DNA from: Takakia lepidozioides
Taxonomy: Eukaryota; Plantae; Bryophyta
Length of the DNA: 64,000 nucleotides
Assembly: GCA_030704615.1 (NCBI GenBank)
Contig: CM060731.1
Coordinates: 79,794,001-79,858,000, forward strand
Direction: 5' to 3'
Shown: positions 2,466 through 40,500 of the stretch, piece after piece
Layout of the letters: each line of letters starts with the position of its first letter
Position numbering within the stretch: the stretch's first letter is position 1
Made by a program: the position numbers and the translations under genes
The notes under the pieces: generated by a model
Told to the model about the DNA's origin: nothing
What the model saw: only the letters and a program-made list of their open reading frames with translations
The model's database searches: none

Positions 2466-2821
2466 TGATAAGAAAGCTAAAAGGACAAACACTCTCAACA
2501 CAAGAAATATGAAATCCCTCAACATCACTCTTTAAGATAATAGTCGAGCCAGGGGCACCCCAAGCTATGGGGACTCCACCCCACAACAACCTACACTCCC
2601 ATCATAAGCACACTCAGATCTGAAGAATGCAGGAGCTCGGTCGCGCAGGCTCAACTCGAGAGAGATGAGCTGCGCGACTGCCGCTCTCGTGAAGATAAGA
2701 CAGACCAGGTGTCAAAACTAAACTTGACACCTGATTTAACACTTGACCTAAATCCAAGTGTTAAATACAAATAACTAGTTTTATTCTAGCTGTTTTCACA
2801 CTGTGCTTATTTAACTTGACA
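2466..2821 (-). repeat. Repeat A, 3' copy (356 bp, TG...CA)
   Basis: Matches 13941-14296 with one mismatch found by eye (a2512 vs c13987). Confidence 0.95.
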
Positions 2822-2823
2822 GC

Positions 2824-2908
2824 TGTCGTGCGCATACATATCGCTACACAACTACATCGCTGTCCAAACCACACCACACATATATGCACAATAAAGTAGT
2901 CTAGCACA
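2824..2908 (-). repeat. Repeat B, internal copy (85 bp) directly after the polypurine tract
   Basis: Identical to 2380-2464; joined to A through the palindrome GACAGCTGTC (2818-2827). Confidence 0.95.
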
Positions 2909-3167: not shown

Positions 3168-6143
3168 CTATCCAATGCAATGTGGACATAACCAATCCCC
3201 ATCCGGAACCATCTCAAGAGGTGGAGTCAAGCATCCCATATGCCAACCTCTAGAGCACCGATCACACACCAGCATGGTGGCTGCCCCTTTAGCAGACCCA
3301 CACAACATGCACCTCAAACCTGCAGATACCACTGCCAGGTTTGGGTCAATCCTGCCATCGACATTCGGAAGGTGACATGGCGCACAATTACGCACATGGT
3401 CCTTCCAAGTTATGCCATCCCGACCCTCCAAGACCAAGACGCCTGAGGGCAAGACCTCTCGAACCCTCAAAATAACACGTCCTGCAGTCACATCCAGGGT
3501 CGTAGGAGCAGTCTGCTGCAGATAGACATAGTCACCAGGGTTGAATCTCCGAACCCCAGGACGATAGCCCCCACCACGTATGGTAGCATACCTCAACGTA
3601 TCACGGTGTTGTGCAATGGCAAGGTTCTCGAAAGCCATGGGCATGACTCTCTTGAACAACTCTGCACGCTGCTCACATGCACGTGCCCACACGTCCGGAT
3701 CGTCAAGGTTAAGAACTGTAGCAGCTTCTCTGCGAATGGATGTAGGCAAATCCGGCTCTCGGCCAAAGAGAAGAAAGTATGGTGAGAAGGAGGCAAGTGA
3801 TGCTTGCTTGCTGAACCTGTAGCCCATGGCTAACCAGGGTAACTGAAGGTCCCAATCTCCTAGGTGTCCCTTCTGCAAGCCATACTTGCGCAAACCCCTC
3901 TTTACTGTCTGAACAACTCTCTCTGCCAAGCCATCGGCTTCAGGATGATCCCGAGAAGTGGTGCGGTGGTCTATCAAGGCCTTGTCACACAAAGCCTGAA
4001 ACTCCCCCAAGAACTCTCTCCCTTGGTCCGTGAGTACCTCAGCTGGAGCACCGAATCGGCTAAGCACACAATCCAGGAATGCATACGCAGCTCCCTCACT
4101 AGCCTTATCAGGCAATGGAACCAATTCAATCCACTTGGAGAAGTGCTCCACCATCACCAACACGTACTTGTTGTGGCGCATGGTCAGTGGCAACGGCCCT
4201 GCGAAGTCAAGACTCCACCTGTAGCCCAATCCCATGATCGGAAGAGGGTGCAATTGTGGAGTAGGGGCGTTGAATGAAGCACGCACCCTGTCACACACCA
4301 TGCACCTAGCCACAAATTGTTGCACCTCTGTGTGCATACCACGCCACCAATACTGCCCCTGCAGTAGACTATGAGTGCGTCGCACCCCAAAATGCCCCAA
4401 CTCCTCATGGGCATGCCGCACTAACCGTGCCCGCTGTGTTGGGTGAGGCACAATCCTCACTCGACCATCCTCCCACACTCGGAGCAGGTGTGTCCCCTCC
4501 CACCTGAACCTCTTGGCTCGTTGTAGGATCCGATCCCTCTCCTTGGCAGTCATAGTGGCTGCCGTGTCTCCACTGCGGAGGTAGTCCAACACAACTGAAT
4601 CCTCATGTATATCTTTGGCGCCACCCTGCTCATTGCTGGCCTCAGGGTCCTCAGACACTTGATCTACAGTCATCCCTGTTGTAGGTCCAACCTGGCCTTC
4701 CGCTGCCAAGATACACAGAAATGCAGATGCATGCCATCCGGGCACCATCTCCTCGTCCGTCTCACCATGCCACCGAGCTCCAGTGTCATCCTGCTGGCTC
4801 GTGCATGGATTGCGACTCAACCCATCTGCATTTCGATTGACCAAACCCGGTCGATGCACCACCTGAAAGTCATACTCTTGAAGGATGAGTGCCCACCGTG
4901 CAAGCTTCCCCGTAAGCTTGTCTGACTCCATCAACCACTTGAGTGGTTGGTGATCCGTGACAAGGGTGAAGAGATTGCCGTATAGATAGCACCTGAAGTG
5001 TGCCACGGCCCACACTGCAGCTAAGCATTCTCCCTCATATGAGCTATACTTAGACTCTGCAGCATTGTTCGAGCGGCTAGCATAAGCCACTACGAACTCT
5101 CTTCCCTCATCATCCACCTGTGTGAGCACCGCTCCAAGCCCCAGCATGCTCCAATCTGTATGCAGCTGAAAAGGACGCCCCCTGATAGGTCGTCTCAAGA
5201 TGGGCGCCGAGGTCAACCTCGCCTTGAGCTCTTGAAAAGCTTGTTCTTGCTCATCTTCCCACTGCCACTCCTGGTCCACCTTGGTCAGCTTGGTTAGAGC
5301 CTTTGCAATGGCACTAAATCCCTTAACAAACCGTCTGTAATAGTTTGCTAACCCCATGAAAGCTCGAACTCGGCTCACATCCGTGGGGCGTGGAACCTGT
5401 GCAATGGACTCTACCTTAGTCTGCTGTACCCCCAATCCTCCAGGATATATCATGTGACCCAGATACTCAATCTGGTTGTGGAAAAACTTGCACTTGCCCG
5501 GATGTAACTTCAATCCGTGCGTCCTCAAGCGCTCAAATACCCCCTGAAGGTGTCTCTCATGCTCCTCCACCGTAGCACTAAAGATGATGATGTCATCTAT
5601 GTAGCACCGAGCAAACTCCACCCCTGCTAGAATCCTGTCCATGACTCTTTGAAACTCAGCGGGAGCGTTTTTAAGCCCAAATGGTAAGAACCGCCACTGG
5701 TATAGGCAATCCTTCCCGTGCTCATTGATCCCCCAGAATGCCGTCTTTTGCTTATCCGCCTCCTTGATCGGCAACTGGTGATATCCGGATCGTAAATCCA
5801 ACGTGCTAAAGACCTTGGAATGCCCAATGGCATCAAAGATCTCCTCTGGTGTTGGCATGGCATACCTATCGGACTTGGTCTGACGATTTACAGGCCGGTA
5901 ATCACCGCACATACGTCTCTCCGTCCAATTGCCATAGACATCCTTCTTAGCTGGCATCACTGTGGCTGAAGCATACTCTCCACCAGAGAGCTCCACCAAA
6001 CCTGCCTCCCAGAGATCTTGAGTCCTCATCTGAATCAAAGACCTCTCCATGTCACTGTATCTATAGGGTCTCCGAAAGATTGGCGTGTCAGTGGCCAACT
6101 CAATACGGATCTCTTGACCCTTCAGTGCTCCCAAGTCCTTCAA
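3168..6143 (-). CDS. pol: reverse transcriptase - RNase H - integrase (HHCC, DDE core) - C-terminal PHD finger
   Basis: Open 991-aa frame: RMCGDYRPVN, STLDLRSGYHQ, LPFGLKNAP, YIDD (Gypsy RT); LHTDWS...EGECLA (RNase H); HEELGH...CMVC, SLDFAGP, VLTDQGREF, HPEADGLAER (integrase); CMLC...CDRC...HMGC...WLCPHC (PHD, ~3177-3311). The frame continues upstream to a stop at ~6304. Confidence 0.95.
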   Translation of the reverse strand: MKDLGALKGQEIRIELATDTPIFRRPYRYSDMERSLIQMRTQDLWEAGLVELSGGEYASATVMPAKKDVYGNWTERRMCGDYRPVNRQTKSDRYAMPTPEEIFDAIGHSKVFSTLDLRSGYHQLPIKEADKQKTAFWGINEHGKDCLYQWRFLPFGLKNAPAEFQRVMDRILAGVEFARCYIDDIIIFSATVEEHERHLQGVFERLRTHGLKLHPGKCKFFHNQIEYLGHMIYPGGLGVQQTKVESIAQVPRPTDVSRVRAFMGLANYYRRFVKGFSAIAKALTKLTKVDQEWQWEDEQEQAFQELKARLTSAPILRRPIRGRPFQLHTDWSMLGLGAVLTQVDDEGREFVVAYASRSNNAAESKYSSYEGECLAAVWAVAHFRCYLYGNLFTLVTDHQPLKWLMESDKLTGKLARWALILQEYDFQVVHRPGLVNRNADGLSRNPCTSQQDDTGARWHGETDEEMVPGWHASAFLCILAAEGQVGPTTGMTVDQVSEDPEASNEQGGAKDIHEDSVVLDYLRSGDTAATMTAKERDRILQRAKRFRWEGTHLLRVWEDGRVRIVPHPTQRARLVRHAHEELGHFGVRRTHSLLQGQYWWRGMHTEVQQFVARCMVCDRVRASFNAPTPQLHPLPIMGLGYRWSLDFAGPLPLTMRHNKYVLVMVEHFSKWIELVPLPDKASEGAAYAFLDCVLSRFGAPAEVLTDQGREFLGEFQALCDKALIDHRTTSRDHPEADGLAERVVQTVKRGLRKYGLQKGHLGDWDLQLPWLAMGYRFSKQASLASFSPYFLLFGREPDLPTSIRREAATVLNLDDPDVWARACEQRAELFKRVMPMAFENLAIAQHRDTLRYATIRGGGYRPGVRRFNPGDYVYLQQTAPTTLDVTAGRVILRVREVLPSGVLVLEGRDGITWKDHVRNCAPCHLPNVDGRIDPNLAVVSAGLRCMLCGSAKGAATMLVCDRCSRGWHMGCLTPPLEMVPDGDWLCPHCIG

Positions 6144-6172
6144 ACTGAAGGCAAAGCAATTCCTGTAAGCCC

Positions 6173-7824
6173 TCAGGAACCGCCGTATACGTCGTCTCTC
6201 TCCTCCGGTGACAATGGGTCCAATGTCAGGCTCCCAATTGTCCTCCGTAACTGCAACCTTAAGTCCAGTGGGCTTAGAGGTAGAGGACGCGTCCCGTGGT
6301 TGCTATGCTGCAACCTCTTGAGCAGTACCCCTTCCTGCTCAGTCAATGACAAGGCCTCATCCTGCCCCATCATCTCATCATTGAGAACCTCCTCATCCCG
6401 AGAAGAATCCCCAACCTCATCCATCACAGCTGCCTTCGCTGCCAACTCCCTCTGAACCTCGAGCACCTCCCACATGTGCCATGGATGTCTACACCTCGTG
6501 GTCCTCACCGGCTCGCCCCCACTCGCTGCCTGTACCGTCTCGGTAGGCAGAGAGACCATCAAGGGAAGTGCACTCCGCACTCTACGTTGCTCAGCCATAG
6601 CCAAGCTGACAATCCAGGTCAAGCAATTGAGATCCATTGCTTGCCCCAACACCTGACGACGTGATGCCTCAGAAAGAGAAGGCACCGCCGTGGTCCCAGT
6701 GGAAAACCCCATAGCCCGCTCTCGCTCGTCGGCATTAGGCTCCACTAACTGCTGCAACTGAGCATCCCACAGGAGGCCAGGTCCACCATCCCGAAAAGCA
6801 TGGGATCCTGGGAAGCTGAGCAGTGTAGGTAATGCTGCTCGTGGTTGACCCACCCTGTTGACCACTGCCAAAGGCGAACGGTCATCGTGTCTCACACGTT
6901 GAGACTGCCTTCCTGTGTCCAAAATGCCATCCACGGTGAGGTGTGCTGGCCGCTGCACCCCATCAAATGCACGCTTGAGCAGTGCGGGTGGCATCAAGTT
7001 AGTCCACCATAGTCGTGGACGATGAGCCCGTGACCCCACTGCAGCTGCATCCAGCAATACTGCTGACCCAAGCCACGACCGGACTTGATGCACACTGGCC
7101 ATCACCCTGGCCCGAGAATCACCCATCAGTGGCACATTCTCCAAGATGTATGCCGGAGATACAGCCTGATGAAGCTGCAAGTGGCGCAAAATCCGCACCA
7201 TCTCCCAAAACAGACCCGTCCTCGAGTCTCGCAATCCATTGCCATGCCCGGCTGATGAATGCCCTTGGCAGGGCCAACCTGCCACTACCAGATCAATGGA
7301 GCCAACCCGCTCCAAATCCTGCGCCCCCAGCAACGCAATGTCTGCTGGCAAGGCCTGCTGATATCCACGAACTGCAGACACCGGCAACAACTCAGGGGCT
7401 GCTGCACCATCTGAGCAACATGGCGCAGTGAGACGCGTCGTGCAGTCTCATCCCTCTCCACATACAGGTAACGTCGAACTCGTACACCTGCCTGCAGCAC
7501 TGCAGCCAATCCAGTGCTGATCCCGCCAAATAAGTCCAGAAGGCATATGCCTTCATCCGGTCGCTGCCACACAAGAGGTGTGGTGTCCAATGGCGACAAC
7601 TGAGGTGGCCCTGGTGCAATCACCGCACTCTCCTCCTCTCCTGACGGTACAAAAGCTTCTACCCAAGCTTGTTGCACCCGTCCATCAGCAGCGTGCTGCA
7701 AATCCTTGCTCGTACCCCACAACGGAGTGTGAGCAACCATGGCAGGCAACTCCGCCGTACCATGCATGTCATCCTGCTCTGCTGGAGGTGGCACATCCTC
7801 TGCATGGGCATTGCCTTCCAGCAA
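6173..7824 (-). pseudogene. DNMT3-like cytosine-5 DNA methyltransferase domain inside the polyprotein (core ~7550-6610), one internal frameshift near 7395
   Basis: Motif I LDLFGGIS, II YVERD, IV DLVVAGWPCQG, VI YILENV, VIII AHRPRLWWTN, IX ERERAMGF, X RRQVLGQAM, in canonical (non-permuted) order, spread over ORFs 7285-7824 and 6173-7390. Confidence 0.92.
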
Positions 7825-10496
7825 CTCTCCAGGCCACTAACTGCAGCTGTGAAGGCGGCTAGTGTTGGCATCTTGCCCCGCTGAGCAGCTGCAATACCCC
7901 CAATGAATGTCACAGGGAGCTGTGCACGGCGACCATCCCCTGACTGCCATCCAGGCCTGTAGGATGCTGACTCCTCCCAGAAATCCAGGGTGAAGCCCAT
8001 GGGGTATAACACTGCCCCACCAACGAGGACATCGTAAGAGACCGCGTCTGTCACAATGGCCTTGGCTCGCATCACTGAGCCATCTACAGGATGATCCGGC
8101 TGCAGTCTAATAGCCAACTGATGCCGTGTCATGCCGCGAGCCTGCTCTGATCCTCCCAGAGATGTCTGTATCTGGAAAGGACAAGGCTCCATATCCGCCT
8201 CCATGAGGCCCAAACCTGCAATAGCAGCTCTGCCCAACATCAGTGGCTGAGCTCCTGAGTCCAACAAGACCCGCAGTGGCCGGTACTTCTTGCCTGCCGG
8301 TCCACTCAAAGTGAAAATGCCTCCCTGGTTGTCTAACAAGACAACTCCAGGTGTCACCATGGCGCGCTCAAAGGCTGGCCTAGCTGGCAGCTCCGTCAAT
8401 CTGGCAGCTGCAGCTTGCCAGGGCGCTGCCGTGGCAGTCTTGACCCTCAAATCCGAGGATCCCTCTGCCACTACACCTTCCACTAACTCCGCAGAAGATG
8501 AAGTGACCTCTCCACTCTCACAGAGTGTTGCTGCTAGTCTGAACACTGCAGCTGGTCTCACTCCCGGCGTCGCAATCATGGTTGCCGAGAACAGTGGGGC
8601 TTGACACACAGAGGTGGCTGCTCCCAATAACACACCGGCTGCACTAGCCTTGGTAGCAGGTGTCAGTGCTGCACGTGTAGCTCTTCCCAATGGCATAGTA
8701 ACCTCCGCCTCGGTAACAGTCGGGCGAGAACTAGGTGCCATGGATGGCGTTGACACTGTCTCCGCCAAGGTGAATGACTGAGGCAGCCTTGCCTGACGGC
8801 TTGCCTCCCCACGTTGTGGATCCAACTCCACCTCTGCACCTCGTGGCTCAGGAACTCGTGTTGCTCCTCGAGTCACGGCTGCAGCAGACTCCACCTGCTC
8901 TAATGGTAGTGCTGCTCCGCACATGAATCCCATTCCGCCCATATCTCCTCCCTCAGGAGCAGGAGGTGGGCCATCCCGCCTGGGAGCCGGTACCGCCTGA
9001 GCTATAGCCATGGCAGCGAGCCTCTGCTCTAGCTGCTGAAGCCGATTGGCCATGCCTTGGTCAACACCCTGACCTCCGCGTCCTTGGCCATGTGGAGGTT
9101 GCCCTTGGCCTGCACCTCGTGCCCGACCACCTCGTCCTCTTTGGGCTGGTCCACCTCGCCCCCGGCCACCATTGTTCCCTTGGAACTGGCCTGGGCGCAA
9201 CTCAGGATGCAAGTCATAACACTGGGCATCTCCATGCCCATACTTGCCACAATGCCCACACTGCAACTGTGCAGGCTGTGCTTGTGCCGGCCTTCTGCCA
9301 CTCTCTGGGCAATCTCTCTTGACATGGGGTCCTCCACATGTCCAACATATCACCCCTGGTTGCTGTTGGCCTGCAAAAGATGCCACGGGCCTCTGCACCT
9401 GAGGTCCCCTGTAAGCTCCATGGAACTTGGGCTGGGCAACCTTGCCCCCCTGACCACGCTGTTGGGCAGTCCCTTGTGCTTGTGGGCTGACAGCTGTGCC
9501 CCGTACAGGCATGTCCTTGCCAAATCCAATTGTAACAACTCGCTCCTCCACCATGTTGAGCTCAATCCGCTCAGCCAGCAGAAACACATCTGCTAATGTG
9601 GGTTGGGCTGCTTGTAACAGGGTTGCATCCGCACCCTTCTCCTGAGCTCCTTGTCCAAAATTCCATACCAAACTGGATTGCCTGAGCTTCAGTAACCCCT
9701 TGGGTCACACTTATCAAGCGCCTCATACGAGTGTACGCCTCTCGCAGGCTCTCACTGGGTTTGCGCTGGAAGTCTTGCAAACTTCGCAGCTTCTCTGTCC
9801 GTACACCTTGGTAGTTCCTCCGCAACTCCTGGAAGAACTCCACCACCGGGTTGAATCTAGGCAATTGTGTTGTAGTCGTGGCAGGAGAAGCACCTTTTGA
9901 ACTGGTACCACCTTCAGAAGTACCAGCACTACTTGCTCCACTACTAGTGCTGGCAGTGGGAGCTATTGGTACTGATGCAGCTACTGGTCGCGTCGTGCCT
10001 CGAGTAATGGAGACGTAGTCAGGTGACCAATACATCCTCCACTCCTCAATCTCTGCTTCATGTCCTCGCCTGAACTCGTGGTAATCGTCCATAGGCGGGC
10101 CTTCCAAATGCTGGAACAGTCCCTTCCACGCCATGAATGGGGTGAATAGCTGTGGATTGCGCATCTGCTGCAAATCACACCAGCTGTCGAACTCCTGGAT
10201 AAAGTCATCCAACTCGATTGTGCCCACAGCTCCAGAGTACCTACGAGGCCCCTTGGTAGCTCCATACATCACCTCCATGTCGTCCCACAACAATGGCGAA
10301 TGAAAGTGCACACCTGTTGATGAAGCCTCCGAGTCTGTGTCTGACGCTCTACAGTAGTTGAGGGTGGCGGTGAAGGTGGTCTGAACCGAATACCTCGTCT
10401 TGTGACCCCACTCTCACTGTCACTGCTTGTAGCCGTACTCCCCTCAAAACCCTTGGGTAACTCCGTAATGACACTCACAATGTGCACCTCCTCCAC
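7659..10496 (-). pseudogene. gag (capsid-like region + two zinc knuckles) and aspartic protease, frameshifted
   Basis: LDDFIQEFDSWC...QKPSESLREAYTRM-type gag; CWTCGGPHVKRDC and CGHCGKYGHGDAQC; protease LRVLLDSGAQ...DVLVG. Pieces in ORFs 10269-10496, 9571-10311 and 7659-9671 join after small indels (QF-WYGILDKELRRRVR-DATL). Confidence 0.88.
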
Positions 10497-11015: not shown

Positions 11016-11765
11016 CTATGCTATCAACTTCCAGACTTCTCTCAAAGTGCCTCGCTCTGCTTGATGGTAAGGTGTAGGAGGTATATCTATGTCCAGAAAC
11101 CTGCCACTAACCTTGTCCCAAGCTACAGTAGCTCGCTCTAACCAACCCTCCTCCTCTTTCTGCCAGGTAGAGACAAAGCAACACTCTGCTATCTCCCGCT
11201 CACTGAACACTAAAGAAAACAAAGGTAGGGTCTGATAGTCTCTCAACTCGAAAGCTTTGAGACGATTGCGGGTGTCTTCATTGCGAATGACTGCATCGCC
11301 TTCAAACAGAACAAACTTGTCCTCGCTAATGAACCCCCGCTCGTGGTTGCCTTGTGCAGAGCGTGTCCGACTGCAACACTGTCTAATTGCACAAACTTGT
11401 GCAGCTCCTGCTCCTCTGCTCCAGTACACCACGGCCTTGTGGCTGAACACCTTGGTCCCCGGGGCTGTCTTTGGCTGTGTTCCAAGCCTAGCTTTCACCC
11501 ACTTTGGTATTTCACCTACAGCTGCAGAACTGCTGGCTCCAACAGAGTTCTGACTGTCCAAGGCGATATTGAGGCCCTCAATGCCAACTACAGCAGTCTG
11601 TTGTCTACTGCTAATGCCTGACTCCCAGTATGCAATCAACTCGTCCAACTGTTCTCCACTCAAATCAGTCTGAGTTCCTTGGGAAACATAAATCGTGTCC
11701 CCTTGTGTGCACAGACTAAGAGAAGAGACCTGCCCTTCAATTACGTCCTCATTTCCCCCAGCCAT
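11016..11765 (-). CDS. Extra ORF upstream of gag inside the element, unknown function (249 aa)
   Basis: ATG-initiated intact 249-aa ORF on the same strand as gag-pol; no motif recognised. Confidence 0.55.
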   Translation of the reverse strand: MAGGNEDVIEGQVSSLSLCTQGDTIYVSQGTQTDLSGEQLDELIAYWESGISSRQQTAVVGIEGLNIALDSQNSVGASSSAAVGEIPKWVKARLGTQPKTAPGTKVFSHKAVVYWSRGAGAAQVCAIRQCCSRTRSAQGNHERGFISEDKFVLFEGDAVIRNEDTRNRLKAFELRDYQTLPLFSLVFSEREIAECCFVSTWQKEEEGWLERATVAWDKVSGRFLDIDIPPTPYHQAERGTLREVWKLIA

Positions 11766-12332
11766 GCATGGAGTACATCCACCAATTTGTCTCTCATATA
11801 GACCAGCACAGGTTCTAGAGACAGGATTGTGGATCTTTCATGGCACTCTCACACTCTAAAAATTCCATAGATTTTTAGCAGAGTCCCAAAAACGAAAACC
11901 AGGTTTAGATAGGTAGATTTCCCCTTTCTGCAGCTATCCCCCCAAAAACTGGGTCAAACAGAGTCCATTTGACAAAGATATGACCAATTAGGCTCTAAAT
12001 CCTTTAAATTAGATCAAAAGATTTTTATTTTATTTTTTTTAACACCCAAACGTTCTCGTCATTACAACCTGTTCCCAGGTTATCTACGGGTTCCCGAGGC
12101 CGTTCCCCGACTATGCTGACTCCGGGTCTTTGCTCTCACGGGACTTCATGTTCGTCATTGCCCAGGGAGAGAAGCAAGACGGACGCAGACGAGGGCAGCG
12201 ATGGCCAAGCCTGCGCGAGCAAGCAGGAACAAGGAGGTGGTGTGGGGTGTTGGCCGATTCGGCCGATCAAAGGGTTGCGCATGAGCAGCTTGCATGCTCG
12301 TCAATCTCCAAAGCCATGCAGCAGAGATGCCT

Positions 12333-12400
12333 GCTCCTGGTTCTGCTCCGTCAGCTCCTACCAGCTCCTGGTTCTGCTCAGTCAGCTCCTACCAGCTCCT
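12333..12400. repeat. 31-bp tandem repeat, ~2.2 copies
   Basis: gctcctggttctgctc(c/a)gtcagctcctacca at 12333 and 12364. Confidence 0.85.
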
Positions 12401-12487
12401 TGCTCTTAAAGGTTGTCCACTCAACCTCTCTCAAGCTGAGCGACCTAGAGACTACAAACAACATGCTTCGGCATCTCTCGGGAATCC

Positions 12488-12832
12488 ATGGCGCATGCGT
12501 TGCTTGTGAAGCCTTTGGTTCTGGTTAGTCCCAGGATTTGCAGCTCAATTCAGCACCAGCTCCGACAAACCGCCTTCTTGCCTCTCCCTCTGAGATCTGC
12601 AAGGACGAAATGTGTCGCTTCCAAACCATCAGCAAGCTTGACTTCTGAAGGATTCTGGACTCCTTCATCCAGTGACAGTCACCAAGTCTGGTTCATGAGG
12701 AGTGATCTGGAGTTACCCACCTCAGCTTATGCTTATGAGGGGCCAATTGCTCAGGGAGGGCAGGGCCCATCACCCATGTTGGCTGAGCGATTCCAAAGCG
12801 TGATCACTCAGCTTTTTCAACAACGAATCATT
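12488..12832 (+). pseudogene. ClpP5: Captured 5' fragment of nuclear-encoded plastid Clp protease subunit ClpP5 (transit peptide to start of the protease domain), antisense to the element
   Basis: MAHA...FWTPSSSDSHQVWFMRSDLELPTSAY...QGGQGPSPMLAERFQSVITQLFQQRII matches my recollection of the ClpP5 N-terminus (LWTP...VWSIRDDLQVPSSPY...QGQGPPPMVQERFQSIISQLFQYRII); similarity stops abruptly. Confidence 0.8.
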
Positions 12833-12919
12833 ATACCTTGGCTGGCCGATACTGCCCGTTCCAACTGGAGTCGGCATTTTGTGTCTTCACAAAACCAAAC
12901 AAAACCAAACTGCAGGAAT

Positions 12920-13590
12920 TCGCGATTGCCTCAGTAAAGTGGAACTCAATCTGCAGCCGCTGGTGCAATGGGACCTTGCCAAGCAGCCCCTTCTTGATGT
13001 CAATCTGCAGCTCGCGCAAAGGAAGCGCAGCAAGAAAAACTCCTTCACAAATTGACGGCAGGCACCTCTTCCAACATGCACCACCTCAGCAGCAGCAAGG
13101 TCCAAGCCATTGGGTTTTTCATCAAAGGCGACAAGTGCAGTTACTGGGGAAATCTGCTCACCCTCAGCCTGCAGGTCCCCCTTTCTATATCAATTGCTCA
13201 TACAACCCTTCTTAGAACCCTGTGTAGGAGCTTTCCGGATGTTTTTCCCTGCAGCCATGACGGACACTGTGAACGGGAGCTTGGCCTTCAACGCTACTGC
13301 CTGTTTGCGCTTCGAACATACGATTGTGATCTGCCCACCAAGCCAAGGTGTCTGCCACCGTACTCCCCCGCTGCACGGATGGCATGCAGCTCAGTCTTTC
13401 AACCCGTTTTCTTTTGGTGGAATTCTGGCTCAAGCGGGGAGCTATTTCTGGAGCTCGTGTTTACCACCCTCCTACAACTGGCAACGAGAGAAACCCTACC
13501 AGCTGCTATACGACAGTGGTTTCAGGACCTTCGTCCAAGTAGCTATGGATCCTTTATCCTGCACAGCCTTTCGACAAGATCATTGTGATC
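12920..13590 (+). pseudogene. Possible second captured fragment, degenerate F-box-type gene
   Basis: SRLP...KWNSICSRW...TLPSSPFL resembles the end of an F-box motif, and IVICPPSQGVCHRTPPL resembles the VxNPxT...LPP motif of F-box-associated domains; frameshifted and weak. Confidence 0.3.
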
Positions 13591-13928
13591 GAGGTCTGTC
13601 CTCAGAACCTCGCACTCGAACTAGATCGCAGCTTGCTTCTGCAGGTAGCTTGCAAGCGTGGAATCCCGTCTTCCCCTTTCAATCATAGGTTATGGTGAAC
13701 ACATTCTTCTGCTCCCCCCCCCAAATCAACTTCCTCCAAAATACATCGCTCCTGTGCAACAACAACAAAACGGAAAACACTTCTTGGACGAGCTTGGTAT
13801 GGCTTATAACGAGTTGGAGAACCACGTTGTCATCAAGCATGCCGCTCTCTTCACCTTGACCATCGACATAGTGCTAACATAAAAGAACTCTATCTAGCTT
13901 AGCACTACAAGAAAACTAGATACAGCCA

Positions 13929-13940
13929 ATCTCTCTCGAG
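13929..13940 (-). promoter_or_regulatory. Non-tRNA primer-binding-like site, complementary to a segment of repeat A
   Basis: atctctctcgagt (13929-13941) is the exact reverse complement of actcgagagagat (14129-14141); there is no TGG-initiated tRNA PBS next to repeat A. Confidence 0.7.
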
Positions 13941-14296
13941 TGATAAGAAAGCTAAAAGGACAAACACTCTCAACACAAGAAATATGCAATCCCTCAACAT
14001 CACTCTTTAAGATAATAGTCGAGCCAGGGGCACCCCAAGCTATGGGGACTCCACCCCACAACAACCTACACTCCCATCATAAGCACACTCAGATCTGAAG
14101 AATGCAGGAGCTCGGTCGCGCAGGCTCAACTCGAGAGAGATGAGCTGCGCGACTGCCGCTCTCGTGAAGATAAGACAGACCAGGTGTCAAAACTAAACTT
14201 GACACCTGATTTAACACTTGACCTAAATCCAAGTGTTAAATACAAATAACTAGTTTTATTCTAGCTGTTTTCACACTGTGCTTATTTAACTTGACA
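13941..14296 (-). repeat. Repeat A, 5' terminal copy (356 bp)
   Basis: 355/356 identical by eye to 2466-2821; followed by the TSD AAGC. Confidence 0.95.
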
Positions 14297-14300
14297 AAGC

Positions 14301-15071
14301 CATGAATTTCTTGAACACTGCCTGGTGTGCTACCCCAGGCAAAAAGAGTTTGGTTCTTGGTGATAAGATTCTACTCTAATTGGGAAGCTCTTCTAGTTCT
14401 CTCCCTCTCCTCCCTCTCCTCCCTCTTACTTCTTAATATTAGACATGGCAGACCTATGCTTAGGTGCGTCGTGTGGGGATGTCTGAGAGCTCATACCCTC
14501 TAGTCTATTTGGAAGTCAAGATGTGCTTGGATCTTCCAGGGTAAACCCCCAGTCTCAGATTTATGTTGTTTCACATCTATGTTGATCTAGGGGAGGAAGA
14601 CTTGGGTCAGTGTGGAACTCTTCCCCGAGCTTCAGATCGACGCAAGATGCAACTTTTCCAAGAGTTTGATCTCACCTGGGGCAAGAATGGCCTCCTCGGC
14701 ACTCGTGTTTCCAACCCTTCCGTTCAGTGGAAAGACTCCGTCCCCCCTCAATGGGAAATCCCCGGCTGAAGACGAGGATGTAGACTTTAAGCGACGCCAC
14801 AAACGTACGTGATTCTAAGTTGAAAACACAACTTAAGTTTTAGTACTCCAGCCGTTGGTAGGAGGCCTCCTCTGTCGGACTCGGATACAATCCAGCTACT
14901 GCTCCTCCCCATCTTTTGCCTCCCAAGTCACCTCTATGTTTTCCCTGCTGTAAGCCTTTACTGGCCCTGAGTGGTTATTTTTTCCACTTTGCTTAAATAC
15001 ATTTCCAGGGCCTCTGTCTCCATGTTCTCTTGAAACACTCTTTTCCCTGTTTTATTAAAAAAAAGAAAAAA
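14301..15071 (+). mobile_element. LINE (L1-like) 3' remnant, right piece, ending in an A-rich tail
   Basis: Zinc-finger continuation HEFLEHCL...QAKRVW, C-terminal ...FQEFDLTWGKNGLLG...W, then TTTATTAAAAAAAAGAAAAAA at ~15051-15071. Confidence 0.6.
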
Positions 15072-18600: not shown

Positions 18601-21600
18601 GTGAAAAGGTGGGTTATTTCCTTCTATTCTTTCCAGGTACTTCATGTGGGGTTTCAATCAACATTCTCTGCTGGATGTTTGAGAGTTAGTCAAATGTGAG
18701 GAAGATTTCTGCTTGCAGGTCTCCGGATTTTTTGGCAGGCAATTTGAGAGCATCAAATCTTGTGTGTAGAACCTGAGAAGGACATTGAAGTATTCTTCAC
18801 TCATTTATGTAAGTATATCATAAAACGTATGCCATATGTTGATTTGTTGGACTAATTTGTGTGGCAATTCTTATTTATCTGGCAGATTGAGAAAATTGTG
18901 TTTGTTGTGTTCTTTGCTGGAGAGCGTGCGCGCACAAAGATCATGAAGATATGTGAGGCATTTGGAGCCAATCGCTATCCGTTTCCTGAGGAGATCAACC
19001 GACAGCGCCAGATGCAAAGTGAAGTATGGCCTGGGGCACAAGCTCCTGTAAAAGTTCTGCCTGCTAATTCATTGTCAGGAGGAATGTCATTGCGTAGCGG
19101 CACTTGAATTTTTGATATCTGTTTTTGGGTGCAGGTGATGGCGAGGTTGTCAGAGCTCCAAGCCACACTGGATGCAGGCATCCGACACCGTGACAACGTC
19201 TTAACCAACATTGGCTACAATCTGGAGGAGTGGACAGTCATGGTAGCATCTCTCTTACTACAGTACGTTTGTTGTCACGATTCTGTGTTTTTTGAGAGAG
19301 GGGGGGAAACAAGCTGTTGTTTGTGGTCAAACACATCAAGGTCTCACTAGGCTCAGCTCCAGGTCTAATCTACTCCTTATTGCTTGTATGTGTTGGGTGC
19401 AGGTAAGGAGAGAGAAAGCAGTGTATCACACATTAAACATGCTTAGTATGGATGTGACTCGCAAGTGCCTCATTGCTGAGGGCTGGTGCCCTGTTACTGC
19501 CAAGGCCAAGGTGCTGCTTTACAAGTCCTTTTACCATCTGATGTTCTGTATTCCCACTACTTGGGGTTAATTATCCATATTGGTTATGCAATGAATTCCT
19601 GTGTGGCTGTTACGTCTCAGTAAACTTATCTCAACTCTACTTATCTCTGCTGTAAGGGTAGGCTATATTTGGAGTGCTCCTTTTTCACCTTATCTTGAAT
19701 GCTGGTAGGAACTGCTATAGGTAATGTGGGACCAGGGTGATGGTTGAATTCTTCAAAGGTTGAGGGCGCATCTGTGGTGTGCGTTCAAGTGCTCTTGTAA
19801 TATCACTTCTCTGGTTAAAGTACTCAGGGAGAATAAATTATCAAATAACCCTACACTTTTCATTGTGTGGCCTCTATTAACAGCTAATTGTTCCTTGAGG
19901 AGCGGTTTTGCAAATACAAGGTGTCTGGATTCTAGGACTGTTCCTCAGTCAATGCATTATAATGGATGCGACATGGGAGGGTGAGCAGATACAGGATGCC
20001 ATCCAGAGGGCTTCATATGACAGCAATTCACAGGTCAATACCATCTTCCAGGTTCTGCACACCAAGGATTCGCCCCCCACGTTTTTTGAAACCAACAAGT
20101 TCACGGGTGCATTCCAAGCGATTGTGGATGCGTATGGGTGAGTGAATGTTTTCACCATGGGTACCACAGGTTCTGAAACCGAAAAATGAAATGTCTGGAC
20201 ATACCTTCTTACCATCTCTAAGTACAATCTACCCACTCTCGGCACTAGACTGAAATCTAAACTCAGGGCGGGTAATTTCTAAATTGAAAAATCGGGACCG
20301 CCAGCCGTGGCGGTTCTGATTTTCCGGTTTAAATACTAAAATAAAAAAATCGAGACTGCCAGCACTCACGGTCCCGATCTTCCGATTCAATTTCTAAATT
20401 GAAAAATCGAGAGTCGGGACCGCCAGCGGTGGCGGTCTTGATTTTTCAATGTAAATTTTGAACAGCAAACAGAAGCAGAGAGGAAAGGGAGAGTGCAATT
20501 GCCCGTTGTGTGGGCAACCTGAAGACAATATTCATTTTCGGATTCATTGTCCGGGTTCTCTCACCAGAGAGACGCTCTCTTAAAATCTATCAAGGGAATT
20601 GTGCCTGTACCTCTGTTTACCAACTTTGAAAAGTCTCGAGGCTGAGCCAAAAGCGCAGGCCCTTTTGGGGCCTAGTTATTGGGCAAACCACACACAGCAG
20701 GTTGATGCTTGTGTAAAGGGATTTCTAGAGGATACCTGGAAAGCCCGGATCAATGGTCTCTTCCAAGGTAAGTCTTGCTACCGGTGTCAGCCCCTGACAA
20801 AGGTAGGTTATGTCCCTTTGTGTTCCGCTCAAACTGGGCGCGGGGTCGATGGCCACAACGCTACGGCAAACAACGTCTTATGAGTACATTATAAGTACAC
20901 TTTGAAAAAAAAGACCATACTAGAATGCTGCTAACCAATTTAAAGTGGTTTGTGGCTGTAAGGAGTTTGAGATACTAAGGTAGGGTGGGGTCAAGGGAGT
21001 TTCATTGGTAGCTTGTGGGTCTTGCAGGTGATGCAAGGGGAGCAAACCACCCCACACTTTCCTTTTTTTGAGAGACGGGAGGCTGGCGGCATATAAGCTG
21101 CATCAACCAAACTTAATTCAGCTAGTTGAAAGATGTAGGCTAGTCATTGAACTATCATTACCCACATCTAGGCCATGTGTGGGAGCGAATAGGATGGAGG
21201 CGGTCTCTCTCTGTTAGCCCATGCTTTGTCCATGGCTGAGTGGGTAGTGCTGGTTGGGGAGTTGCCCATGCAGGGTGGGTCGGTACCAGGAGGCGAATCC
21301 TGGCTGTTTTACTATAGTAACTTTCCCTTTTCTATTTGCGGTTATGTTTGGTGATTGGGGCCACGGGATTGCGCTGCTGCTGGTGTCTCTATATCTCATC
21401 ATAAATGAAAGGAAACTTGGGAGTAAGGTTAGTAATGCTCACTTATAGAGAGAACGCTCTTGCAGTTTAAACCTCGCTTTCTAGACTTTGGTGACCCTTG
21501 CATCAACTATCTTTTCAGTTTGATATGCTGCTGGTGGGCTCTGGGTGGTCTATGTTACATTTATTTGTTCTGCTATTTTAGCTCTCCTCTCTCTCACTCA

Positions 21601-37500: not shown

Positions 37501-40500
37501 CTTCGAGGACATCTGGTACCAAAATAGCCTTTCTTTTCACATGGAACATATGATATTGCAAGAGCTTCTTAGAAACTTGAGAGAAAGCATGGGGACAGAC
37601 CAGAAAAGAGAAAGAAAGGAGAAATGGAATGATACTAAATTATGTCCACAGAAAGCTCAAAGAGCTTATGGGACAAGAAAGCAAGAAAGATAGTGGGGCG
37701 CTCCACAAGCAGCCCTAAAACAACTATTGATCAAGGGATTGTCTAATAGTTAACTCATGCAGATATGCTGCTCAGCATTCCTGATCCTCGTAACGGAAAA
37801 CCTCTGAGAGATTGGCTATCTCAGAATAGACAATAGCATCTCCCATCGATCTCATAGTGGAAAGGAAGAAATGTCCTTCACTTTCGATTTCCCTCCTGTT
37901 ATCGCTAGTGCAAGCAGGGCACAGGAGTCCGTAGGTTGTCCCACCTAGCAGTCTCTAGGGACTGCACCAACCATATTTTCACTCTAAGCCAGATTATCCA
38001 GGGAAGGAAAGAAAAGGAAAGCCCACTTTTGTCTTCTTCCTGGATGTCAAAAAGGCTTAAGACACAGTATGGCGTGACGGGCTGTGGCTCCGGCTTTGGT
38101 GTTCGGGGTCAGGATGTGGAGGATGGTTCACAACCTGTATGCAAACACCGAAAGCTATGTTACAGTCAATGGACAGAAGTCTAACTTCTTTGATATTGAT
38201 CAAGGTGTGCACAAGGTTGTACCCTCTCCCCACTGCTCTTCAATGTTTTCATCAATCAGCTTCTTGAAGATGTGGAAAGTGAGGGGTTGGGGTTAAAGGT
38301 GGGTGATGCAACCATACCAGCTCTTATGCTTGTGGATGACTTCGCAGACCTAGGGGATAGCCCGCCCAATCTCCAGGAGTTGATTGATTGTGTGAAGAGG
38401 TTCTTTGACCTGTGGAGGCGAAAAGCTAATGTTAGTAAATGCACAGTGGTAGCATTTAACGACCGTGGGGAGGGAGGAGGGGATCTCAAAGGGAAATGGG
38501 GTAATGAAGATATCCCTGTACTCCCTTCCTATACATCTCGGTGTGGAGTTTTCCTCAAGCTGTAACTGGGATGCTCATATACAAAAAGTGATTCAATCAG
38601 CTAAATGCAAAGCTTTGGGTCACTAAATTTTTCCACTGCAGAGGGATTAATACTGAAGTTTAAAGGACCATGCTTTGTAACGTTATTAGGCCTGCCTTGA
38701 AGTATGCATCTGCAGTGTGGGTCGACAATTCTAACCATGCTAAGTCTCTAGAATCCGTTCAGGTCACGGTGCTCAAAGAAAAGAATGTCAATGTGTTCTA
38801 GAACAGCTAATTCAGGGCGAGTTTGGCATACCTCCGTTAAGCTCTTGACGTGATGGATTGAAGGTCAGATGGCGGGGTCAGTCGCATGTCTACTATCAGA
38901 TACCCTAAGATAATCGACTCTATTTCTTGGAAGCAAGACTGCTCTGTTAAACAGGCTACGTCTTGGCGGAAAATGGTATAATGGATTTTGAAGTATCTGA
39001 ATTTTAGTCGAGAAGAATTGACCCTACTGGATGAAGTTGACCTGGAGGGGGTTGTGTCCAAAGCCATGTCTGATCCCCAAAGACTTCCCGATGGCAATGA
39101 AGTTAGGCATAAAACTTCCCTGCATTTGTTTCCAGTCTGTGACATAGGCGAGGACCTTAAGGATGATCTCAAGAGCCTACCTACCCTTGGCACAATACTG
39201 AAAATCAAACTCAGGACCGACCTTTGAACATTAAACAGATGCAGAGAGAGGAAGTGGAGATTGTAATGACCCGGTATGTGGGTAGACTGAAGACAATATC
39301 CATTTTCTGATACAATGTCCAGGATATTCTCACCAGAGAGTGACCCTCTTCAGGACAATCAAGAACATTGTCCCTGCACCTCTGTTCGCAAATTTGAAAA
39401 TCTTGAGGCTGAGCCTAAAAGCCCTGGCCCTGTTGGATCTGAGTGCTGGGCAGCTCACACACAGCAAGTTGATGCTTGTGTGAAGGGCTTTCTAGAGGAT
39501 ATCTGGAAAACCCCAACTAATTGTCTCTATCAAGGTAAGTTACACTACCGGAGTGAGCCCCTCACAAAGTTAGTATGTGCTCACTGGGCGCAGGGTCTAT
39601 GGCCACAATGCTATGGAAAACGTCTTATGAGTACAATCTACCTGCAGACTGTGAGGGCCCACCCTAAACCTCCCCAATGCCCATAGAAGAGAGGGAGATA
39701 GAACTGCAGACAGGTAGTTGGGCTACAAGATTCCATCATGGAGGATCAATAATGTCTCTGGATAGAAGTGCAGTTTTGTTGTAAGTTTGATTGAACGAAG
39801 AAAGAAAAACTTACAATGCCCATGAGAAGCTCAAAGAGCTCATGGGGGAAAAGAAAGCAAGGAACAACAATGAATAAGTTTGGCCCTAAACAAGCCCATA
39901 TAGAGAGATTCTCTAAATCTCATGATGACATGTGACCAGTCATCTCTGTTCCTCATAATGGAAGATCTCTGTCAGGGGTTGACTGTCTCAGAAGAGGCAG
40001 TAGAAGCAGCTTCTGTTCTCATGAAAGACTGGACATCATAAGAAGAAATGTTCCTTCGTCTCAGTCTATAGATCTGATGTAGCACAGGTGGGGCATAAAC
40101 ATTTAGTGCAGTTTCTCACATCTGCTTGTCTCCATCCTCAGACTCTGGGATCCCACCCCAATGCTCATAAGAAAGAGAAGAAGATAGATAACTATGTCCA
40201 GTGAAAGCCCAGGCGATGGACCAATTGAGAGAAAGAAAGAAAAGAAAGGAAAGAACACACTTTTGTTGTCCACAAGGAGGCCCGAGGGCCCATCGGGCAA
40301 AAGTAGGAGGAGAGAGTGAATCATTGGAACATCTCTTTCACACGCTGGCTTTCACATACCTTAGGTTCTAGTCCCAGTGAGATATGAAGCCTCCTAAGCC
40401 AATTTTGGGGTTCTGATCCTTGAGGTGTGAACGCTCATTGCAACATTTCCTGCTCACTTGCACACAGCTAATGTGCGTCTGGTGATAGGGAATTGTGTGT

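Follow-up and report, generated by a model that had tools for sequence, protein, structure and literature searches.

Insertion ends at a conserved internal palindrome in a Ty3/gypsy branch with split repeats

How does a retrotransposon come to be bounded by the two halves of a palindrome that also lies, uncut, inside its own terminal repeat? This is the question raised by an 11.9-kb Ty3/gypsy element in the window (the whole 64-kb stretch of DNA analysed here), whose coding sequence is on the minus strand and which, on that strand, has the layout B…internal…A-GACAGCTGTC-B/A (the slash marking the seam between the last B and the outer A), with TGTC…GACA termini and a 4-bp target duplication (Table 1). 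The sequence GACAGCTGTC is a perfect palindrome that occurs once in exact form in the window and constitutes the joint of the 3' copy of B (B1) and the inner copy of A (A2). Read on the forward strand, the element runs from TGTC at 2380 to GACA at 14296, and the presence of AAGC on either side means that the palindrome's central GC is missing from both element ends. The original prediction, which placed a palindrome at the repeat joint and held that the element ends are its two halves minus the central GC, is thus borne out. A left end that includes AGC (2377–2379) was considered and rejected: these bases belong to the target duplication, and none of eight left flanks ends in GC. The host flanks 2368–2377 and 14308–14317 form a 10-bp inverted repeat spanning the insertion site, which would fit a clean insertion into a stretch able to form a hairpin.

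Table 1. Features of the element and its boundaries (positions in the window; minus, coding strand of the element).
Feature	Position	Strand	Remark
Target-site duplication, left copy AAGC	2376–2379	none	
Outer repeat A, A1 (predicted U3-distal part of the LTR)	2380–2466	minus	identical to 2824–2910
Right att end, GACA-3' of outer A on the coding strand	2380–2383	minus	relatives end at the same place
B/A seam: U5 end of B and U3 start of A (predicted LTR-LTR junction)	2466–2467	minus	
3' repeat B, B1 (predicted rest of U3, R and U5)	2466–2821	minus	355 of 356 bases shared with B2
Second occurrence of the self-primer, in 3' B (predicted start of R)	2655–2666	minus	
Palindrome GACA-GC-TGTC at the A-B joint (internal att site, uncut)	2818–2827	none	
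Inner repeat A, A2	2824–2910	minus	identical to A1, 2380–2466
Polypurine-tract-like G run adjoining inner A (predicted plus-strand primer)	2911–2919	minus	marks the U3 end of the cDNA
RT, RNase H, integrase (HHCC, D-D(34)-E) and PHD finger	3168–6302	minus	open, 1044 codons; Pfam and motifs
C-5 cytosine methyltransferase region, over two frames in the window copy	6173–7836	minus	Pfam
C-terminal part of Gag (zinc-knuckle-like motifs) and aspartic protease	7659–9704	minus	weak Pfam match
Gag N-terminal part (Retrotrans_gag)	9571–10413	minus	below Pfam cut-off
273-codon open frame upstream of gag	11016–11837	minus	family-level contig depth; no Pfam match
PBS, complementary to a 12–13-nt stretch inside B (predicted)	13929–13940	minus	marks the U5 end of the cDNA
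5' repeat B, B2	13941–14296	minus	self-primer inside at 14130–14141
Left att end, TGTC at the start of 5' B on the coding strand	14293–14296	minus	
Target-site duplication, right copy AAGC	14297–14300	none	

The coding content is that of a Ty3/gypsy element, with the order gag, protease, RT, RNase H, integrase (the gag and protease matches lying below Pfam cut-offs) and with a cytosine methyltransferase (DNMT) inserted between protease and RT. The nearest solved structure to the Pol frame is that of Ty3 Pol, and the named protein matches come from Marchantia, Riccia, Sphagnum, Closterium, Haematococcus, Volvox and Monoraphidium; the host is probably a bryophyte. The integrase frame is open and both its HHCC motif and its DDE triad were found; at its C-terminus it carries a PHD finger, and Pfam detects no chromodomain. 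The canonical spacing between the second D and the E of integrases is 35 residues. The window copy has 34, as do 100 of the 104 relatives that could be matched among 120 examined, and D(34)E is a candidate clade signature linked to the altered substrate. A scan of 26 frames of the element and its flanks at an E-value of 0.1 gave no tyrosine recombinase. The DNMT and gag regions (6173–10413) are split over frames and show small indels relative to most family contigs near 6327, 7835, 9628 and 9669; the repeats of this copy are nevertheless 99.7–100% identical, and it is a young but lesioned copy, probably moved in trans.

Palindromes of at least 10 bp are common in the window (65, or about one per kb, with 12 in the element), and the case for this one therefore rests on its position and its conservation. 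What goes beyond chance is its placement at the repeat joint, the identity of its halves with both element ends, and its retention in relatives. The latter were collected with an integrase-PHD alignment of 29 homologues as the query: the best 80 were taken from 543 confirmed metagenome stretches, and nine came from the genome collection; L088 and L089 (25% identity) were left out, and 87 loci were analysed. Scans of viral contigs gave no match. Within 4 kb downstream of the integrase the exact 10-mer has 12 matches in 195,661 bases (0.19 expected), and there are none in the other 611,022 bases of the same loci. The relatives that carry it share 46–77% integrase identity and lie in loci of 40–65% GC. 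The palindrome sits 52–180 nt after a G run in all 11 repeat families distinguished and its central GC is invariant in 10 of them, although six of the 11 families were chosen by the motif itself, so that for these only the position behind the G run and the enrichment test count as independent. Repeats A and B themselves barely align between families, unlike the joint, and a comparison of the palindrome with the flanking repeat sequence, which had been proposed as a check, accordingly came out in favour of a conserved site. Among 19 inner joints, six are perfect and 13 have one to three differences, every one of them G>A or C>T, as would be expected from the decay of methylated cytosines. In L056 the joint is doubly changed but is still a perfect palindrome (GGCAGCTGCC), and L074 and L075 carry a variant with one base changed. 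L058 stops at GACA where its near twin L083 runs on into the palindrome. In L041, a deletion about 277–300 downstream of the integrase match has fused A to B, with loss of the palindrome. We also note that L081–L087 are plant or algal retrotransposon contigs within bacterial and archaeal bins of the prokaryote genome collection, where their presence is likely to reflect contamination.

The relatives also show where insertions end. Downstream of the integrase, 25 of the 87 loci have the form A-joint-B/A and 17 have A followed by foreign DNA; about 14 more show the joint or an end by itself, 16 are too short on this side and about 15 are not classifiable, all with the proviso that metagenome contigs of repeats may be chimeric. 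A conventional pair of LTRs was found in none of the 87. Every resolved copy has its LTR divided at the internal palindrome, and the two complete direct LTRs of a typical Ty3/gypsy element, with outer ends at the cDNA ends set by PPT and PBS, are absent. For the counts of ends, one insertion found in several samples was counted once, and L051 and L052 (outer A end not callable) and L020 (outer A cut by the contig end) were left out. The 30 independent right ends that remain, that of the window included, divide equally into A-joint-B/A and A-only forms (15 each) and read GACA in 21 cases, AACA in seven, and TACA and AATA in one each. All but one of the 30 thus lie at the CA of a palindrome half, and GC follows in only two. 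The eight full-length copies (the window, L007, L040, L061, L001, L010, L057 and L065) all start with TGTC, end with GACA or AACA and are flanked by a 4-bp duplication, which is perfect in four and has one mismatch in the other four (28 of 32 positions match). Duplications of 3, 5 or 6 bp were rejected, with only 4 of 24, 9 of 40 and 11 of 48 matching positions, respectively. At the other side, the nine visible independent 5' ends comprise four copies of the form B…ABA, four of the form B…A, and L062, which is not assignable; the mirror form, B/A-palindrome-B…A, is seen in none of the nine. Wherever the 5' end of an A-only copy can be seen (four cases), the copy is B…A. Such A-only right ends could stem from one-LTR circles, from double cuts on linear DNA, from later recombination or from assembly collapse. 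The one resolved exception is L046 (245–543 downstream of the integrase match), which has the form A-joint-B and ends at the end of B, with no outer A within the 2.5 kb examined.

Other copies in the host lead to the same base. These were judged from public contigs of four runs and two samples, mapped to 2760–2950; three of the four runs represent one sample, which is possibly the source of the window. In X2, 20 contigs leave the repeat exactly before 2824 into mutually unrelated sequence (agreement 0.38, median 100 nt) and a further eight do so at 2823, which is what extension by chance matches would produce; X5, from an independent study, adds one contig that leaves before 2824. Where contigs leave A on its PPT side, the sequence that follows is the start of B. 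No loose end at 2821 is present among the 22 listed of 88 rows. Mapping of contigs to the whole element shows that the family is of very high copy number, and the loose-end rows listed there stop short of the termini. Unique right-flank contigs start at 14269 and 14272, a weak hint of other copies that end at 14296. Together with the right ends of the relatives, these host contigs answer the question, posed with the original prediction, of whether the ends of other copies map to the palindrome: we found that they do, and that ending there is a rule of the family and not a quirk of the window. We also observed that contig depth across 12108–13775 is about 1000-fold below that of the rest of the element, and that one run has a joint which skips 12016–13928; given this low depth, most family copies have a leader that is shorter than, or different from, that of the window copy.

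These ends do not coincide with those expected of reverse transcription. The stretch beside 5' B that we take to be the PBS (13929–13940) is complementary to 14130–14141 within B, and a match of this kind is present at eight of ten 5' ends (shuffle p ≤ 0.04; L008 duplicates L007), as also in L081 and L003, with none for L001 and L062 among the ten. The pairing extends over 8–16 bp, and the paired stretch of B is specific to each family and co-varies with the PBS. In six of seven cases a TATA-like motif lies 28–33 nt upstream of the paired stretch, where the transcript is predicted to start; the window copy lacks this motif. According to PMC4600332 and PMC6317226, Tf1-type self-priming is recognised by a PBS that can pair with part of the LTR, and this is the priming mode that we would predict from sequence for the present elements. 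Since the PPT adjoins inner A and the PBS adjoins 5' B, the predicted LTR of the cDNA is A-palindrome-B, and the palindrome would lie inside U3, away from the ends of the cDNA; for the same reason we rejected B-A as the true LTR. The inserted form is equal to a two-LTR molecule that has been joined end to end and then opened at the palindrome of its upstream LTR. The decoupling of integration ends from reverse-transcription ends that had been predicted therefore finds support in the PPT at inner A and the co-varying PBS at 5' B.

The B/A seam, which joins the PBS-defined end to the PPT-defined start, behaves quite differently from the joint. It is near-blunt in most copies, but L006 has extra PPT-side bases, L013 has a 17-nt filler, and seams in the L061 family vary by 0–2 nt and include one deletion. 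An invariant joint beside a ragged seam would be expected if the joint is a recognition site and the seam is remade by end-joining. The available text on Tf1 describes ragged cDNA ends, with single-stranded PBS and PPT and non-templated bases (PMC11042837), and one may speculate, by analogy, that such raggedness was the reason for moving the att site inward.

Based upon these observations, we propose the following cycle. The transcript would start inside 5' B, prime itself at the PBS and jump to 3' B, and the predicted product would be an ordinary two-LTR cDNA in which each LTR reads A-GACAGCTGTC-B and is bounded by PPT and PBS. Joining of the U5 and U3 ends would then create the ragged B/A seam, and a symmetric integrase oligomer would nick after the CA on both strands of the palindrome in the upstream LTR, leaving 2-nt GC overhangs equivalent to the 3'-processed ends of retroviruses. 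Strand transfer with a 4-bp stagger would finally give TGTC-B…A-palindrome-B/A-GACA, with the GC lost and a 4-bp duplication, as in the products described above. The palindrome would lie about 130–165 nt upstream of the predicted TATA motif and start site, and the B…A-palindrome-B/A form would therefore keep the core promoter and both copies of R and would be the sole replication-competent form, with one-LTR circles, or loss of one repeat unit, yielding dead-end B…A copies. The parts of this proposal differ in strength. That the palindrome halves are the att ends is very probable, and use of the palindrome by the integrase is a strong inference from sequence. A circle formed before the cut is likely; a closed circle as the substrate of integration is, in our estimate, only somewhat probable, because cutting before joining and an end jump by RT would give identical products. 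For the combined statement, that the inserted ends lie at an internal palindrome where a DDE integrase cuts after each CA in end-joined LTR-circle cDNA, our confidence is also above even but far from firm. The original prediction is supported overall, but its circular intermediate meets a difficulty: a plain symmetric two-LTR circle contains two palindromes and should give the mirror product as commonly as the observed form. With none among nine 5' ends, either a bias towards the upstream LTR or a loss of mirror copies must be added, and selection for cutting the upstream palindrome is plausible.

Among the alternatives, the one that deserves most attention, though we think it unlikely, has the order reversed: the integrase cuts linear cDNA at the upstream palindrome, keeps hold of the two halves and inserts them, and host repair then joins U5 to U3 in the chromosome, end-joining giving B/A and annealing of repeats giving B…A. 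No free circle is required, and the palindrome remains the att site. This scheme leads to the same products as a circle, accounts for B…A copies being so frequent (15 of 30 right ends) and for the exception L046, and explains the absent mirror form by annealing of the longer B repeats. Each insertion would, however, involve breaking the chromosome, and one of the halves should often be lost during repair; the clean 4-bp duplications of all eight full-length copies and the mostly near-precise seams fit joining before insertion at least as well. Less probable again is a seam made by RT itself, by a jump from the U5 end to the U3 end through which linear cDNA gains an A-palindrome tail, the integrase then using the first and last palindromes. 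The asymmetry of the products and both observed forms would follow directly, the seams of the window and the L007 family need only 0–1 nt of overlap, and ragged ends of the kind described for Tf1 would favour such jumps. Here each end would come from a different palindrome of which half is discarded, so that a conserved symmetric site with an invariant centre would not be needed; furthermore, the fillers and deletions at seams fit host end-joining.

Split-direct-repeat retrotransposons that encode a tyrosine recombinase have been proposed to use a circular intermediate. A cycle of the DIRS/Ngaro type, in which the terminal A is transcribed and templates the circle and the seam is inherited instead of being remade, is suggested by the A…B-A-B layout shared with PAT, Ngaro and VIPER (available text of PMC6681497; legend to Fig. 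4c of PMC5890265). We regard it as very unlikely, because PPT and self-priming PBS together specify an ordinary LTR cycle that can do without the outer A, the scan of 26 frames gave no tyrosine recombinase, duplications of 4 bp next to CA ends are suggestive of a DDE enzyme, and seams differ within one family. Finally, a single rearrangement, a nested solo LTR or an assembly error with a coincidental palindrome might be entertained given how frequent 10-bp palindromes are in the window. The comparative data refute this reading and its residual probability is negligible: layout, joint and ends recur in several unalignable repeat families and in other samples, other host copies end at the same base, and both host flanks share the 10-bp inverted repeat across the site.

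Several known systems share parts of this arrangement. One of them is KnitGypsy-Dnmt3 of Klebsormidium nitens (de Mendoza et al. 2018), described as having DIRS-like repeats and Gypsy domains (PMC5890265, Fig. 4c legend); like the window element it combines a Gypsy Pol and a C-5 cytosine methyltransferase with a DIRS-like repeat structure. In the article text of PMC5890265 that was available we found no palindrome, att site, target duplication, priming mode or mechanism for it, and term searches returned no mention of a palindrome in its supplements or in the preprint 10.64898/2026.05.21.726589, each as far as its text was accessible. No K. nitens protein is seen among the matches listed for the window element, of which only a minority carry names. 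The Tf1/sushi and Tcn1-type elements resemble ours in a PBS complementary to the LTR, a PPT and the order RT-RH-IN, but they carry two complete LTRs that end in the att sites, and in most cases a chromodomain (PMC4600332, PMC6317226), whereas the window element has an LTR split at an internal palindrome, a PHD finger on its integrase and D(34)E spacing. PAT, Ngaro, VIPER and SymbioDIRS have the same A…B-A-B layout but, in the text available, employ a tyrosine recombinase (PMC6681497, PMC5890265), as opposed to a DDE integrase with TG…CA ends and 4-bp duplications. In line with the precedent cited in the original prediction, the integrases of HIV-1 and prototype foamy virus cut the symmetric, CA-containing palindromic junctions of two-LTR circles to give processed ends (PMC1905944, PMC1180852). 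There the palindrome is the LTR-LTR junction itself and the product is a normal provirus made by a side route; in the window element the palindrome lies inside U3, the seam remains uncut and all resolved insertions use the palindrome. The layout is therefore already in print once (KnitGypsy-Dnmt3, 2018), and a description of the att site was not found in the literature searched. The same holds for any internal att palindrome, the search having covered sources other than closed journals, Repbase, figures and preprint supplements.

LTR circles are usually treated as by-products, or a dead end, for LTR elements. Productive use of circles by an integrase has so far been argued from the side reactions of HIV-1 and foamy virus, and a natural lineage in which all resolved insertions bear the mark of cutting within an internal palindrome makes the question testable with one short substrate. 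Overall, we judge the phenomenon to be real and conserved, and its mechanism to be unusual: this branch of Ty3/gypsy departs from the paired-LTR criterion of its group and works like a split-repeat circle integrator with a DDE integrase. We also lean, if only slightly, towards the more far-reaching view that in this branch of the green lineage the att site has moved into U3, that the end-joined LTR circle has become the obligatory substrate, and that the integrase acts as a site-specific circle-opener on a palindrome centred on CAGCTG, in convergence with the split repeats of DIRS elements but with a DDE enzyme. If this is true, split repeats arose in combination with two unrelated insertion chemistries; it would also explain how a high-copy clade in bryophytes and algae could escape LTR finders that depend on paired TG…CA LTRs, and the integrase may accept small circular donors carrying a 10–16-bp site.

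As to the surroundings of the element, a degenerate gypsy gag is recognised by Pfam at 72–834 on the minus strand, and a plus-strand frame at 1741–2151, which has no Pfam match, resembles by eye a copia gag-protease junction; by these two remnants, the element lies in a nest of older retroelements. Elsewhere in the window, a 430-bp repeat pair (20457–20888 and 39223–39635) is 76% identical.
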